Source: Flavobacteriales bacterium
GTDB lineage: Bacteria > Bacteroidota > Bacteroidia > UBA10329
Direction: 5' to 3'
NCBI GenBank assembly: GCA_021739625.1
Contig: JAIPBJ010000001.1
Span: forward strand, 2,553 to 66,552
Length of the DNA: 64,000 bases
Both the position numbers and the translations under genes were made by a program. How positions within the stretch are numbered: the first letter of the stretch is position 1; each line of letters opens with the position of its first letter. The notes beneath the pieces were generated by a model. It did not search any database. It saw nothing but the letters and a program-made list of their open reading frames with translations, and was not told the origin of the DNA. Positions 16,844-52,290 of the stretch are shown here, piece by piece.

Positions 16844-16846
16844 ATT

Positions 16847-16874
16847 GTAGAGACGCAGTTGACCGCGTCTCAAC
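16847..16874. repeat. GTAG-type REP palindrome
   Basis: GTAGAGACGC-AGTTGACC-GCGTCTCAAC, 28 bp; related copies at 16947-16974 and 18300-18327. Confidence 0.7.
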
Positions 16875-16878
16875 CGGA

Positions 16879-16923
16879 AAACAGAAACCCCGCTGCGCGA
16901 GATGCGTGGCGGGGTTTTCTGTT
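16879..16923 (+). terminator. Intrinsic terminator after sucC; also the left copy of a 54-bp direct repeat
   Basis: AACAGAAACCCCGCTGCGC...GCGTGGCGGGGTTTTCTGTT; the stem pairs on the + strand using G-U wobbles and is followed by a U-run. Confidence 0.75.
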
Positions 16924-16946
16924 GGTAGAGACGCTGATTCCATTAG

Positions 16947-16974
16947 GTACAGACGTGATTGATCGCGTCTCTAC
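16947..16974. repeat. GTAG-type REP palindrome overlapping the stop codon of the 235-aa gene
   Basis: GTACAGACGTGATTGATCGCGTCTCTAC; a half copy GTAGAGACGC lies at 16925-16934. Confidence 0.7.
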
Positions 16975-17678
16975 CCTGCGACCGGGGCGTTCTTCCCGTC
17001 CATGACCTTGGTCTTGGCCCTATAGCGCTGATACTGTGCCCTCCGTTCGGCATCTTTCGCCCAGACCACACTGGCGCAGATGCTCAGGGTGGACATGCGT
17101 TCCCAGACCATGTTGAACAACGCCACGCGGTCGTGCCGCTTCACCTTTCTGTCAGCCTTGGCGGCCTCCAGCAACTTATTGCGCTCATAGAGCTCGGTGA
17201 CCAGCGCGTCCAACTGGTCTATGGCCTCCTGCCTGTAGCCCTTGTCCAACAGCTGTGGCTTGAAGTCCGCTGACTGCGCGGTGGCATGCGCCAGTTCGAG
17301 CATCTCGGCAAGCAACAGCGTGTTGGGGCGTGCTTCCGGCCATCGGTCCTGCCCGAAGGCGCGCTGCCGCGACAGATCTGTGGGCCATGCCAATGTGGCG
17401 TAGCCCGCCAGGGCCTGCAGTGCGGCATAGCCCCTTTCCATGGCCGCACGGAGGTCGCTACTCAGCACTCCTATATCGAGCAGCAGACTGAGGTCGGAGG
17501 GGAAGGCATCTGCGGCCTTGGTCTCCGCCTCGAAGGCCGAGGCCCATGCGGAGTCCATCCATGGGAATTTCACTGTGAAGTCGGCCAGCTCTGCGTTCAG
17601 GCAGGAGGAGAACACCTCTGCACGCTCCAACATCACATTGTCGGGCATCGTGTAGGCCCTTGCTGCTGTCTGTGCCAT
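16971..17678 (-). CDS. Uncharacterised all-alpha-helical protein (235 aa)
   Basis: Clean ATG ORF with host-like GC; no signal peptide, TM segment or recognisable catalytic motif; basic C-terminus. TAGCTTTG -7 promoter (minus strand) at 17710-17717. Confidence 0.75.
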   Translation of the reverse strand: MAQTAARAYTMPDNVMLERAEVFSSCLNAELADFTVKFPWMDSAWASAFEAETKAADAFPSDLSLLLDIGVLSSDLRAAMERGYAALQALAGYATLAWPTDLSRQRAFGQDRWPEARPNTLLLAEMLELAHATAQSADFKPQLLDKGYRQEAIDQLDALVTELYERNKLLEAAKADRKVKRHDRVALFNMVWERMSTLSICASVVWAKDAERRAQYQRYRAKTKVMDGKNAPVAG

Positions 17679-17704
17679 TGTGGGGTAAGGGAATGCGTCA
17701 ATCT

Positions 17705-18133
17705 GTTCACAAAGCTAATTATTCGTTTCATATAATGCTTGTATGCATTCAAATGTATGATTAAAACATTCATACTCAAGAATGCACTCATCATATACTT
17801 GATCTATTTATTCAAACGAAGAACTAAAATTTTCAGATAAATATGAAAATCATTATGATGATGAATCTGTGAATTCAAATGAATAAATAAATCATTCAAA
17901 TGATGAATGAAACATGTTGAACTTATCATGTGAATGGATAAAAATATCAAATGAATAAACAAAAGAGATATATGAAAAGGTAAATTGATCATCTGAATAA
18001 TTAACAAGTTCATTTGAATAAATGGTATCATCATAGGAATAGATATATTGATCATAAGAATGAATATATTTATCAATAGAAACAATGAAATTTCCATTTG
18101 AATGAAAAGATTAATTATCTTAATGAAAAATTT
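17705..18133. repeat. AT-rich degenerate tandem array, ~20 units with 21-bp period
   Basis: TCA recurs at 17707, 17728, 17749, 17770, 17791, 17812, 17833, 17875, 17896, then after a 9-bp register shift at 17926, 17947, 17989, 18010, 18031, 18052, 18073. GAA is fixed 6 nt after the TCA position in nine consecutive right-hand units. Confidence 0.8.
17710..17717 (-). promoter_or_regulatory. Bacteroidota -7 promoter element (TAGCTTTG) for the 235-aa gene
   Basis: CAAAGCTA on the + strand, 31 bp upstream of ATG 17678, inside the first array unit. Confidence 0.55.
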
Positions 18134-18250
18134 CTTGGAAGTGGGCCAAAGCCTTCGATTCCATTTCCCGAACTCGGCTCTGTTTCGGTAAAACGTGGGA
18201 AACTCGCCTCAAGCTGGTGTATGCACGAAGCGTGAATCACTCCCAAGTGC

Positions 18251-18327
18251 GGAAAAAGAAAGCCCCGCTGTGCGGGATGCGTGGCGGGGGCTGTTGCTGG
18301 TAGAACCGTGATGCATCGCGGCTCTAC
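18251..18327. repeat. Right copy of the 54-bp direct repeat plus a GTAG REP
   Basis: 18251-18304 matches 16876-16929 at 43/54 positions ungapped; overlapped by REP GTAGAACCGTGATGCATCGCGGCTCTAC (18300-18327). Confidence 0.75.
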
Positions 18328-28382: not shown

Positions 28383-29546
28383 TCAATCCTTTATACAACG
28401 CACGGAAAACCCACGAAATTTGGCAGCACTCTCTTTCATCGGATACGTTGAATAGCTGATAGTTCCGTAATACCATGCTTCCTTCTTGTCACGTTCAGAG
28501 GAACTCCACCAAAGGCCTTTGACCGCGATATCTTCAAAGGTGCCTTTATGGCCCACCTGACCGCCCGGAAGCGCTGAGAACCCACTTTCATTCGTTGCCC
28601 CCAGATTGGGGCTTTCCCAATGACGAGTGCCTTGGGTCTTCATCTTGCTACCTGCATTCCATCCTATGAAACTGAAGGCGGTCGGGTTGTCAACAGTGGC
28701 ATCTATTGAATTCAACAAGGCGAACCATTCCTGCTGCTTCGGCACATGCCAGCCCTTTGGGCATAGCCCTCGGGCAGCACCCACCGCATACCAATTGTAG
28801 AGCTTGCCATAGGTGACCCCTTTGGCACCGTCATTCCCATAGTGCGCCCATGCCCCTGTGGCGAGGGTCTTCCAAGCGGTATTGTCGCTAACGTGGGGAA
28901 TCGAATCGCCATTGGCATAGAGGGCCGTGGTGAGGTTCTCTGCGAACCAGCATTGGTCGCCTATGCCCACAAGGGCGTAGGTATGGCCGTTGTGCTCCAA
29001 TCTTGCCGGGTCACCGCAAAGGCACTTGGTGATCAGTCGGTGTGCCGCCTTTTTCGGGAAAGCACCTTTGTTGCTTCCGGCCTCGACCGCGAACCTGATG
29101 GAGTCGGGGATGACCTTGCCGATGGACTTTTGAAGGTTGTCCTTGTGCCGTTCGAAAGCGGTGTTCCAGCCAACGAGATGATCGGTCATGCTGTCCATGG
29201 CTGCGGCAGAAATGCCCATATCCTTATAGTGGCCCTTGTGCTTCTTCAGATGGGCCAGCATCTCGGTGTTGAGGCCGTGCAGCGCGGATGCGTCCCGGAA
29301 AGTTTTGCCATTTTTCGCATACGACCGATAGGTCTTCTCGCTCTCCATCACTAGCCCGATGAACCTGCCGCAGACCGTTGTCGTGTCGTGTGTTTCGGCA
29401 AGGATAGCTGGCCTTGCAGGTCCCGCACTGCATTGAACATGAGAGCTGCACAGCACGAGAAGGCTCAGGAATGCTGGGACGAGAAGAAGAGTTGACGCGT
29501 ATCTCTTTCCGTCTTCATGGCTTGAAGTTTCCGTCCATGAAGGCAT
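28383..29546 (-). CDS. Fibrobacter succinogenes major paralogous domain (FISUMP) protein
   Basis: IGDQCWFAENL, YGKLYNWYA, LCPKGWHVP, NESGFSALPGG, WWSSS, GFSVRCIKD. Start uncertain (29546-29590). Confidence 0.8.
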   Translation of the reverse strand: MPSWTETSSHEDGKRYASTLLLVPAFLSLLVLCSSHVQCSAGPARPAILAETHDTTTVCGRFIGLVMESEKTYRSYAKNGKTFRDASALHGLNTEMLAHLKKHKGHYKDMGISAAAMDSMTDHLVGWNTAFERHKDNLQKSIGKVIPDSIRFAVEAGSNKGAFPKKAAHRLITKCLCGDPARLEHNGHTYALVGIGDQCWFAENLTTALYANGDSIPHVSDNTAWKTLATGAWAHYGNDGAKGVTYGKLYNWYAVGAARGLCPKGWHVPKQQEWFALLNSIDATVDNPTAFSFIGWNAGSKMKTQGTRHWESPNLGATNESGFSALPGGQVGHKGTFEDIAVKGLWWSSSERDKKEAWYYGTISYSTYPMKESAAKFRGFSVRCIKD

Positions 29547-29655
29547 TGTGAATAGTCTCTCCATCTTCCCGCAGCTCTGCCCATTACGCATGCCGCGAAG
29601 GTACGAAGGCGGGTGAAGGAAGTCTTGGTGGGGTTTATTGGGGGTTGGAAAGAAG

Positions 29656-29750
29656 AAGTTCCACCGATGGTAGCGGAAGGTTCCGCTGTCATAGCGAAAG
29701 TTCCACCGATGGTGGCGGAAGGTTCCGCTGTCGTAGCGGAAGTTCCACGG
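29656..29750. repeat. Short tandem array of alternating 21-nt blocks (42-bp period)
   Basis: AAGTTCCACCGATGGTAGCGG / AAGGTTCCGCTGTCATAGCGA / AAGTTCCACCGATGGTGGCGG / AAGGTTCCGCTGTCGTAGCGG / AAGTTCCACGG. Confidence 0.85.
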
Positions 29751-29775
29751 ACCATGAAAATCCTCTTCCCGCGAC

Positions 29776-29917
29776 CTACCCTCTTGTCTGGAGCAAGGCA
29801 TACCCAAGGTAGCTCACCCCCATTATCCCCGCGAACACAGCCGCCAGCCCCGGATTGTACCACGCCATGGCGATGATGCTGAACGTGGCGATGCCCAGGG
29901 CCAGCGCGGGGATGATT
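29776..29917 (-). pseudogene. Displaced duplicate 3' end of the ethanolamine permease gene
   Basis: 29800-29893 is 92/94 identical to eat 31425-31518. The fragment reads IPALALGIATFSIIAMAWYNPGLAAVFAGIMGVSYLGYALLQTRG-stop. Confidence 0.85.
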
Positions 29918-29948: not shown

Positions 29949-31043
29949 TTAATCATGGGAACCTTTGAAAATACCGTCTTCAATGTCTTCCTTTTTGCCG
30001 GTTGCGCCTCTTAGATTTGCATGTTTGAAATCTGCTCCTGTCCAAATCGCTCCTGTGAGGTCTGTATCCATCAGGTATGCACTTCTGAGATTTGCTTCCG
30101 TGAAATTGGCTCCTTCGACATTAGCATGGCACATGTTGGAATTTTGGAGGTTTGCTCTTTGAAATTTTGCTCTGCGGAGGTCTGCTCTGTGAAGGTCTGC
30201 TCTCTCGAGATCTGCTCCTTGAAAGGTTGCTCCTTGGAGGTTTGCTCCTTCGAAGCTTACATATCTTAGGTTTGCCCCTTCAAGGTTTTGTCTTTCGATG
30301 TTTACTCGTTTGAGAGTTGCTCCATTGAGGTGTGCCTCTCTTAGGTCTGTACCTTTAAGGTTTGCCATATTGAGGTTCGCACACACGAAGCTTCCGCCTT
30401 CGAGGTTTGCGCCTTCGAGGTTTGCACCTTCGAGGTTTGCACCTTCGAGGTTTGCATTTTTGAGATTTGCGCCTTTTAGGTTTGCATTTTTGAGATTCGC
30501 TCCTTTGAGGTTCGCATCCCTCAGATTTGCATTTTCGAGATTTGCATCCCTGAGATTTGCATTTTCAAGATTTGTCCCTTGAAGGGTTGCCCGTTCAAGA
30601 TTTGCATTTCTGAGAGTTGATGCCTTGAGTTCTGCCCGACTTAGGTCAACGCTTTTGAGAAGTGTCCCGTTCAGCATTGCACTATTGAGATTTGTGTCCC
30701 TGAGAATTGACCGTTCAAGATTTGCCTCGTTCAATTCAGCAAATTCAAGATTCGCTCCCCCAAGGTCAGCATCACAAAGCCTCGCCCCACATAAATCAGC
30801 TCGATATAGGTTTGCTTTTGAGAGATCAACTCGGTTGAGCCATGCTTTAGTGAGAGTTGCAAAACTGAGGTCTGTACCAATGAGCTTGGCTCCCCTGAGA
30901 TCTGCCTCTATAAGGTTTGCGGAACCTAAATTTAGACCAGAAAGATTTGCTTGTTGTAAGTCTTTTTTCATCAAATCCACCTTTGCTTTCCCGCCAGTGC
31001 TATTTATTAATTCAACTACCAGCTCCCTTGTTATGCTCTCCAT
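29949..31043 (-). CDS. Pentapeptide repeat protein
   Basis: Almost entirely A(N/D)Lxx repeats; distinctly AT-richer than flanking genes. Confidence 0.9.
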   Translation of the reverse strand: MESITRELVVELINSTGGKAKVDLMKKDLQQANLSGLNLGSANLIEADLRGAKLIGTDLSFATLTKAWLNRVDLSKANLYRADLCGARLCDADLGGANLEFAELNEANLERSILRDTNLNSAMLNGTLLKSVDLSRAELKASTLRNANLERATLQGTNLENANLRDANLENANLRDANLKGANLKNANLKGANLKNANLEGANLEGANLEGANLEGGSFVCANLNMANLKGTDLREAHLNGATLKRVNIERQNLEGANLRYVSFEGANLQGATFQGADLERADLHRADLRRAKFQRANLQNSNMCHANVEGANFTEANLRSAYLMDTDLTGAIWTGADFKHANLRGATGKKEDIEDGIFKGSHD

Positions 31044-51839: not shown

Positions 51840-52290
51840 CTGTCGGAAGGAAGGCTGACACAGCGGAGCAACTGCTTTGCCCCGATGGGAGAACTCCGAT
51901 CACAGCGGAGCAACTGCTTTGCCCCGATGGGAGAACTCCGATCACAACGGAGCAACTGCTTTGCCACGATGGGAGAACTCCGATCACAGCGGAGCAACTG
52001 CTTTGCCCCGATGGGAGAACTCCGATCACAGCGGAGCAACTGCTTTGCCCCGATGGGAGAACTCCGATCACAACGGAGCAACTGCTTTGCCCCGATGGGA
52101 GAACTCCGATCACAACGGAGCAACTGCTTTGCCCCGATGGGAGAACTCCGATCGCAACGGAGCAACTGTTTTGCCCCGATGGGAGAACTCCGAACGCAAC
52201 GGAGCAACTGCTTTGCCCCGATGGGAGAACTCCGATCACAACGGAGCAACTGCTTTGCCCTGTCGGAGGCCCGTCCGACACAGCGGAGCA
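51840..52290. repeat. Tandem array of ten 42-bp units with diverged terminal blocks
   Basis: Unit CARCGGAGCAACTGCTTTGCCCCGATGGGAGAACTCCGATCA x9 (51861-52238), a tenth unit with a different second half, and partial units at both ends. Confidence 0.95.

Follow-up and report, generated by a model that had tools for sequence, protein, structure and literature searches.

A worn 21-bp array in front of an unnamed helical-bundle gene of a Flavobacteriales bacterium

A 21-bp lattice upstream of the 235-aa gene

The tract at positions 17705-18133 of a 64,000-nucleotide stretch of Flavobacteriales DNA (contig JAIPBJ010000001.1 of assembly GCA_021739625.1; the whole stretch is called the window here) is an array of twenty degenerate 21-bp units. 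It is placed 5′ of a minus-strand gene encoding a 235-aa protein, between the terminator-like site of the upstream 210-aa gene and a TAnnTTTG promoter motif. Old and degenerate in sequence, the tract is one of a class of non-coding 21-bp arrays that is very abundant in this Flavobacteriales lineage, and it belongs to a subclass that travels with an unnamed family of acidic helical-bundle genes. The features of the locus, in window coordinates, are the following.

16877..16903, minus strand: terminator-like hairpin (16903-16887) with T-tract, 3′ of the 235-aa gene
16971..17678, minus strand: gene for the 235-aa protein, acidic and all-helical, of a large unnamed Bacteroidota family that is the constant partner of such arrays
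17705..17914, no strand: proximal half-array, 10 units of 21 bp, plus-strand consensus ATTCAaATgAat followed by 9 variable bp; TCA in 9/10 units
17710..17717, minus strand: perfect TAnnTTTG match, TAGCTTTG, inside the first unit and 32 nt upstream of the ATG
17873..17893, no strand: unit with number polymorphism, an exact 21-bp deletion in one contig of an unrelated groundwater metagenome run (depth 2.6, low confidence)
17915..17923, no strand: register jump of 9 bp, which sets the neighbouring cores 30 bp apart instead of 21
17924..18133, no strand: distal half-array, 10 units of 21 bp, consensus tATCATaTGAATaAAT; TCA in 7/10 units, G of TGA in 9/10
18253..18277, minus strand: terminator-like hairpin (18277-18263) with T-tract, 3′ of the upstream 210-aa gene

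The period was determined by identity autocorrelation, with 1000 dinucleotide-preserving shuffles as the control. With z-scores of 8.4, 7.1 and 8.85 at lags 21, 42 and 63, and further peaks at lags 84, 105 and 126 (5.67, 5.45 and 5.16), the tract 17705-18133 has a strict 21-bp period; the maximum z over 130 lags in any shuffle was 5.07. The periodicity had been claimed in an earlier note made from the letters alone, and the comparison with shuffles bears it out. Values at lags 10 and 11 were negative (z of −4.4 and −3.4), and being significantly low they indicate that the unit is 21 bp rather than 10.5 bp. Minor peaks at 21k+9 (lags 12, 51, 72, 93 and 114) arise from the register jump within the array.

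Ten units run from 17705, followed by nine extra bases (17915-17923) and a further ten units from 17924. The trinucleotide TCA falls on this lattice in 16 of the 20 units, nine in the left block (from 17707) and seven in the right (from 17926), in exact agreement with the counts and the single 9-bp shift given before. These 16 represent most of the 21 TCA in the whole tract, and in none of 5000 shuffles did the best two-register lattice hold more than 6. The C column of the lattice is C in 17/20 units, in a tract that is 10% C, and the G column is G in 14/20, in a tract that is 12.6% G. Each unit thus consists of a 12-bp core and 9 variable bp, together 21 bp; the core consensus, 10-12 bp long, reads ATTCA-WW-TGAAT with C and G kept best, and the identity of the 9-bp spacers is at background level. 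A complete TCA-N2-TGA palindrome is present in six units (TGA at +5 in 9/20), indicating that the palindromic core is a consensus and not a trait of each unit; as a consensus the core described earlier stands, as a property of the individual unit it does not.

The two blocks differ in the half of the core that they retain, the ATTCA half being kept best in the left block and the TGAAT half in the right. Comparison of the half-array matrices gave a similarity of 4.17 for the left block against the reverse-complemented right block, and 2.72 for the direct comparison (self-similarities 4.73 and 5.77), consistent with two blocks related as inverted copies. The half-site strength of the distal half-array is correspondingly inverted relative to the proximal half. 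Tandem Repeats Finder (TRF) lists 2.2 copies only, at 18030-18075, so the array is hidden from repeat finders, as had been anticipated. At 24% GC in a genome of 55% GC, the region 17690-18140 is the most AT-rich island of the 3.69-Mb assembly. The exact one-unit deletion is weak evidence, and illustrates length change in such arrays.

TAnnTTTG, the Bacteroidota −7 promoter consensus, has 22 matches in the window against 12.9 expected, many of them just 5′ of gene starts. The match at 17717-17710 agrees with a −7 promoter in the first unit, as proposed before. TTTG lies at −34 to −36 in 7 of the 21 loci of the 235-aa protein family listed, the seven including a near-duplicate pair and the window itself. 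The terminator-like site after the 210-aa gene puts the array outside the transcription unit of that gene, and with a terminator-like hairpin after it the 235-aa gene looks monocistronic. Hence the earlier proposal that most of the array lies upstream of the mRNA of the 235-aa gene agrees with its position between terminator-like site and promoter motif. Around the locus are ordinary chromosomal genes, namely sucC, genes for an aldehyde dehydrogenase and an acyl-CoA dehydrogenase, and genes related to the type IX secretion system (T9SS). Small palindromic elements, GTAGAGACGC...GCGTCTC(TAC), lie on both sides of the terminator after sucC (16844-16975); this terminator and one such element are kept after sucC in two same-genus genomes (L203 and L204).

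The 235-aa protein family and the arrays in front of it

The 235-aa protein gave no Pfam or NCBIfam match. DUF6261 (PF19775) was not matched at E≤10 by three family members, nor anywhere in the genome, nor in 148 family representatives, and the sole trace of it for this family is a feature-space neighbour at 0.88. The AlphaFold model is an all-helical bundle with a predicted local distance difference test (pLDDT) score of 86.5. Searches with this model against PDB and BFVD using Foldseek returned nothing at E≤0.001, and the VIA structure search returned generic helical bundles only, the best being the LemA four-helix bundle at Z 10.6, a value below what counts for helical proteins. Matches in the ESM Atlas are confined to unnamed Bacteroidota clusters. 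The isoelectric point (pI) of the protein is 5.83, that of most of the family lies between 4.3 and 6, and one or two Ig-like CarboxypepD_reg domains are found at the C-terminus of many relatives.

Members of the family are numerous and patchily spread. A search of 1.84 billion metagenome representatives at E≤0.001 gave 3,595 clusters, this genome has 14 members, and a match was found in 19/61 sampled relatives and in 14/300 further Bacteroidota genomes, other classes included. The N-terminus, MAxxxxR, is conserved and begins after the array. Public gene calls (P0047, P0048) run family members upstream through their arrays, which yields false N-terminal extensions with leucine at every seventh residue.

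A gene was scored as linked to an array when a 210-bp segment with a lag-21 identity of at least 0.45 lay within 800 bp upstream of it. The alternative criterion, “best lag 21 or 42”, was biased by the choice of segment and was passed by 346 of 730 random genes, and it was dropped. Arrays were found by the first criterion at 28 of the 32 homologue loci fetched, equivalent to 18 of 20 distinct loci, the remaining two distinct loci scoring 0.39. Likewise, 9/13 testable family members of this genome and 8/10 loci from other families and classes of the phylum have an upstream array, compared with 27/730 random genes of this genome (3.7%). The unit sequences vary by locus, and the GC content of the arrays ranges from 16 to 66%.

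The three closest homologues, with proteins 65-68% identical, come from three other species, where they occupy unrelated genomic places among unrelated neighbour genes. In the arrays of two of them TCANNTGA occurs on the 21-bp lattice, with 6 and 4 matches compared with 6 in the window; the third has 0, and 15 other family loci, two AT-rich ones included, have 0-1. Furthermore, the same +9 register jump between proximal and distal block is present in these two arrays (L034 and L024). At the sucC locus of 5/5 same-genus genomes different genes are present and no array lies within 1.5 kb (lag-21 identity 0.33-0.39), and no close orthologue was found for the flanking 210-aa gene. The unrelated places of the homologues, together with the differing sucC locus in all five same-genus genomes, indicate that gene and array travel together. 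Moreover, core, phase and bipartite plan have been kept while the spacers drifted, suggesting selection for a short sequence-specific site every two helical turns. Core and lattice, retained between diverged spacers in the arrays of the closest homologues, thus appear to be under selection.

Arrays of the same period across the genome

A census by our own detector gave 116 arrays of period 21 or 42 in this genome. In parallel, TRF reported 241 tandem-repeat loci, with periods of 21 (71 loci), 42 (41), 63 (10), 84 (3), 105 (3) and 126 (1), so that about 129 loci have a multiple of 21 as period, compared with 0 at 20 and 2 at 22; a further 16 loci have period 7 and 25 have period 14. Segments with at least 50% identity numbered 106 at lag 21 and only 2 each at lags 20 and 22. 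The unit sequences fall into 55 unrelated families among 72 arrays, with mostly 8-14 units per array. The flanking genes are co-directional for 49 arrays, divergent for 20 and convergent for 15; further arrays lie at contig ends (16) or are overlapped by called open reading frames (ORFs; 16). Neighbouring genes include valS, ruvC, fumC, folA, accA, ispF, uvrB, purL and hisD.

Four other genomes were sampled. In a same-genus genome lacking a detectable family gene, 8 arrays were counted over 366 kb, compared with 13 and 17 over 400 kb in two genomes with 12 family genes and 1 in a genome of another family. Arrays at contig ends (for example C4, C9, C36, C51, C55, C101 and C121; 16 of the 116) break the assembly, and the true number of arrays is therefore higher.

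The search for a shared short motif across the arrays showed no enrichment of GGAA. The only motifs that stand out are TTCAAA/TTTGAA (in 7/55, where 0.7 would be expected; Bonferroni p 0.019) and A-rich 4-mers; with the whole genome as background, intergenic composition may account for part of this excess. The palindrome is a trait of the clade to which the present array belongs and not of all arrays. A terminator scan of 46 gene-end/array pairs placed 5 terminators before and 4 after the arrays, with low power, such a site being found for 306 of 2966 genes.

A second, well-preserved array lies in the window at 51859-52260, with a 42-bp unit, 9.6 copies and 96% matches, between genes for 831-aa and 213-aa proteins, both on the plus strand. 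At 29656-29748 a 42-bp unit (2 x 21) is repeated 2.2 times with 94% matches, just 3′ of the stop codon of the minus-strand 474-aa ORF (28383-29807). Close by, a low-GC (46%), T-rich stretch (30012-30814 / 30143-30619) inside or over a minus-strand 377-aa ORF contains tandem repeats of 15, 30 and 45 bp, and four TAG(A/G)TTTG promoter-like motifs on the plus strand.

Elsewhere in the genome, two proteins of about 217 aa that carry at their C-terminus a helix-turn-helix (HTH) domain of the Cro/C1 type, HTH_26, start adjoining a 21-bp array (L082:3343-3993 at C102 and L096:2338-2994 at C139). Proteins of the XRE HTH type account for 4/126 array-flanking genes, and may form a second array-tied gene family. 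Arrays with a strict 7-bp period number 37, compared with 1 at lag 6 and 3 at lag 8 (for example C33:27661-27797 and C87:8623-8864), and in this class TRF gave 0 loci at period 28 and 1 at 35. A few heptamers recur, among them TTCGCTG, GGGACGA, CAATTAT, AGACCAT and GGTTCAA, different ones often side by side, in the manner of the heptameric short tandemly repeated repetitive (STRR) sequences of cyanobacteria.

Candidate roles of the array

Tandem repeats with a constant unit size (20-21 or 52 nt) but variable sequence have been described in bacteria and called enigmatic (Subirana and Messeguer, PMC8161180). For the 20-21-nt repeats, either a protein polymerising on repeats of constant size or transcription has been proposed (PMC8161180, PMC8625621), and the 52-nt satellites of Bacillus coagulans have been reported to be transcribed (PMC8625621). 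Those repeats share with the present arrays a non-coding nature, a head-to-tail arrangement, a fixed unit length and many arrays per genome with unrelated sequences. They differ in that this genome is strictly 21 (plus 42 and 63) rather than 20-21, that the array described here is too degenerate for repeat finders and bipartite with a 9-bp jump, and that the tie to a specific gene family has no mention in the available part of PMC8161180. With its fixed unit length and its place among many unrelated arrays our array resembles that class, but its units are not alike enough for a tandem-repeat finder, making it a degenerate variant. A literature search on DUF6261 and on the repeat class found no paper that ties 21-bp arrays to a gene family.

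Several well-characterized DNA sites resemble the array in part. LytTR-type operators, such as those of AgrA and ComE, contain two or three 9-bp direct repeats with 12-bp spacers, 21 bp from centre to centre. The array has the same spacing and, like them, a short conserved core and a variable spacer upstream of a promoter; unlike them it has 20 dyad-type cores in two inverted blocks, and only 6 LytTR genes, all on other contigs, face more than 100 arrays. In parC of plasmid R1 and in the iterons of theta plasmids, phased repeats at a promoter are cooperatively bound by one small protein. The array likewise has its phased repeats in two blocks at a promoter, but with no partition or Rep genes nearby, in a chromosome with more than 100 arrays, beside a gene for an acidic helical protein and with no plasmid match. 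The ARG boxes to which hexameric ArgR binds, TGAAT-N4-ATTCA spaced about 7 bp apart, share with the array the half-sites TGAAT and ATTCA and a period of about 21 bp on one DNA face. In contrast, the order here is ATTCA-N2-TGAAT-N9, there are twenty sites rather than two, and no arginine gene is nearby; the likeness to ArgR and its boxes may serve as a lead only.

The reading that we favour, tentatively, is that the tract serves as a phased lattice of multiple docking sites, through which a factor encoded elsewhere would control the promoter of the 235-aa gene. The docking sites would lie on one DNA face, from the region of the transcription start to about −430. A sequence-specific, probably dimeric factor would bind the lattice cooperatively and determine how the 235-aa gene is transcribed; the first core lies right against the −7 box, an arrangement that would suit repression. 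The earlier note had suggested a cooperative protein platform, operator- or centromere-like, and had named the 235-aa protein for binding assays. The phased lattice is real and docking is its best reading, while the centromere-like role does not hold, with about 129 such arrays on the chromosome and no partition genes nearby. The 235-aa protein is a poor candidate, being an all-helical bundle of pI 5.83 that matches no DNA-binding family or fold, and the binder would probably be another protein. In favour of docking, C and G are the rarest bases in the tract and form its best-kept columns. Docking is also favoured by a period and lattice far above any shuffle, by the core and jump shared with two homologue arrays, by the frequency of arrays at family loci, by the place between terminator-like site and promoter motif, by the lack of coding-type variation in the class and by the near absence of lags 20 and 22.

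A number of observations weigh against a docking lattice. With more than 100 arrays in at least 55 unrelated unit families, each array can hardly have a dedicated factor of its own, the genome encodes only 6 LytTR regulators, and the neighbouring 235-aa protein is acidic and has no match to a DNA-binding fold. The complete palindrome is limited to just 6/20 units, and in the class as a whole dyad symmetry is weakly enriched (mean arm 3.69 against 3.31 bp; 5/67 units at p≤0.05). Paralogues 72-75% identical carry wholly different units, an observation taken from a comparison of protein identity with array-matrix similarity over 190 locus pairs, a measure otherwise set aside since register jumps blur the matrices. 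Furthermore, convergent genes flank 15 of the 84 intergenic arrays, and in some of these pairs Pfam confirms both genes. Two orphan arrays, upstream of ispF and beside folA, were not found at the corresponding loci in 5 relatives, some with an IspF 95-97% identical, the one exception being an array that one relative carries 3′ of ispF; the relatives do not keep the gene order upstream of ispF. The absence of these two arrays from close relatives suggests that many arrays are short-lived.

Such turnover would also be expected of a neutral or selfish minisatellite, produced by lineage-specific slippage or amplification with a step of 7 or 21 bp, in which case the tract would be a decaying relic and its link to the gene a case of hitch-hiking. 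The TRF periods are consistent with this (21xn at 129 and 7 or 14 at 41 of the 241 loci), as are the 55 unrelated unit families, the occurrence in every intergenic orientation beside housekeeping genes of all kinds, the ispF and folA arrays missing from close relatives, the exact one-unit deletion polymorphism, and the 8 arrays in 366 kb of a same-genus genome in which no family gene was detected. However, neutral decay would not spare just the rare C and G columns, nor would it be expected to leave the same core and 9-bp jump in homologous arrays of two other species. Hitch-hiking fails to explain arrays at 18/20, 9/13 and 8/10 family loci against 3.7% of random genes, and a mutational ruler should spread to 20 and 22 bp, both of which are almost absent; on balance we consider a minisatellite unlikely. 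The period itself, rather than the sequence, would be what matters if the arrays were architectural elements, that is, a bend or wrapping track for nucleoid organisation or insulation, or for a nucleoid protein that reads shape. A period of strictly 21 bp at any sequence, with array GC of 16-66%, typically 8-14 units and any intergenic context, convergent included, would suit such a role, and a protein polymerising on 20-21-nt repeats has been proposed (PMC8161180). The bend amplitude at 10.5 bp, calculated with three dinucleotide roll tables and given little weight, was not significantly above that of shuffled units (p 0.11-0.15), and by the same tables the two half-consensus units of this array lie below the shuffle mean. 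Moreover, a role by shape alone needs no conserved specific core. We consider an architectural element quite unlikely here.

A role as RNA, whether as a sponge or scaffold, as a long imperfect hairpin of the inverted halves or as 21-nt pieces, from its own or read-through transcription, is suggested by a predicted folding energy far below that of shuffles (z of −5.1 for the plus strand and −5.8 for the gene strand). The gene strand also folds slightly better than the opposite strand in 23 of 36 co-directional arrays (p 0.046), and transcription of the 52-nt satellites of Bacillus coagulans has been reported (PMC8625621). The low energy stems, however, from palindromic cores pairing at many lattice offsets and not from one register or hairpin. 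Rfam gave no match to the array at E≤1, with one chance small RNA match outside it, the array class has no purine or strand bias, and the 9-bp variable parts are too short for guides, as they are for searching as spacers. With the tract lying between a terminator-like site and the promoter motif, we regard an RNA role as very improbable, and the earlier suggestion of an RNA cut into 21-nt pieces found no support. A CRISPR array was rejected, the unit measuring 21 bp in total (core plus variable part), whereas CRISPR repeats of 23-50 bp alternate with unique spacers of similar length, and with no cas genes among the neighbours scanned. A replication origin, plasmid-type iterons or a partition centromere would account for an AT-rich island with phased repeats in two blocks, reminiscent of iteron origins and of parC of plasmid R1, and about 10 kb from the tract the contig has a weak minimum of cumulative GC skew. 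These replicon functions are effectively excluded. About 129 like arrays are present per genome, and dnaA is on another contig (C164), which together with the weakness of the skew minimum argues against oriC; no Rep, ParA, ParB or ParM was found among 15 flanking proteins scanned, in particular no ParA/ParM NTPase or centromere-binding protein gene. Neither the array DNA nor, by tblastn, the protein matched any of 72,556 plasmid and 50,697 phage records, and for iterons the acidic helical bundle without a Rep family match and the chromosomal neighbours point the same way. Coding sequence is likewise effectively excluded, whether as a peptide of heptad repeats, an ORF upstream of the gene or the decayed remnant of an N-terminal extension. 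It would be favoured by a unit of 21 nt equal to 7 codons, by a 97-aa ORF (17804-18097, minus strand) through 14 units, and by gene callers that read arrays into N-terminal extensions (P0047). Against this, the length of that ORF is expected by chance from the unit composition (P 0.16), it is out of frame with the gene, and the conserved family N-terminus starts after the array. Across 68 arrays, codon-type variation of period 3 was seen in 1 at p<0.05 (Fisher combined p 0.9999), 9 lack any open frame, and neither strand is preferred. The decayed heptad-repeat gene, intact in relatives, that the earlier note had named as a refutation of its own reading was thus not found.

Among these readings, docking of a factor on the lattice remains the one that we prefer for this locus. 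It could also be part of something wider. The arrays may be the DNA part of an undescribed, phylum-wide Bacteroidota system, a generic re-writable docking lattice of about 10 units of any sequence, with one site per two helical turns, dedicated machinery that makes or reads the arrays, and the helical-bundle family of 3,595 clusters, nearly always preceded by its own array, as the constant partner. This is speculative, and we think it probably does not hold. If it did, the present copy would be a natural mutagenesis experiment in which only the 10-12-bp core of each unit and the phase matter.

In practice, a worn copy whose core and phase appear to have been kept by selection points to the bases to mutate and to an oligonucleotide bait. 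Arrays of this kind also break assemblies, many of them lying at contig ends, and mislead gene callers, which run ORFs through them. More generally, across the phylum such arrays accompany a single large, unnamed gene family, even at unrelated genomic places, and in this genome around half of the tandem-repeat loci have a period of 21xn, with almost none at 20 or 22, beside every kind of gene. Were these arrays protein lattices or architectural elements, they would represent a major unannotated layer of genome organisation in freshwater Flavobacteriales.

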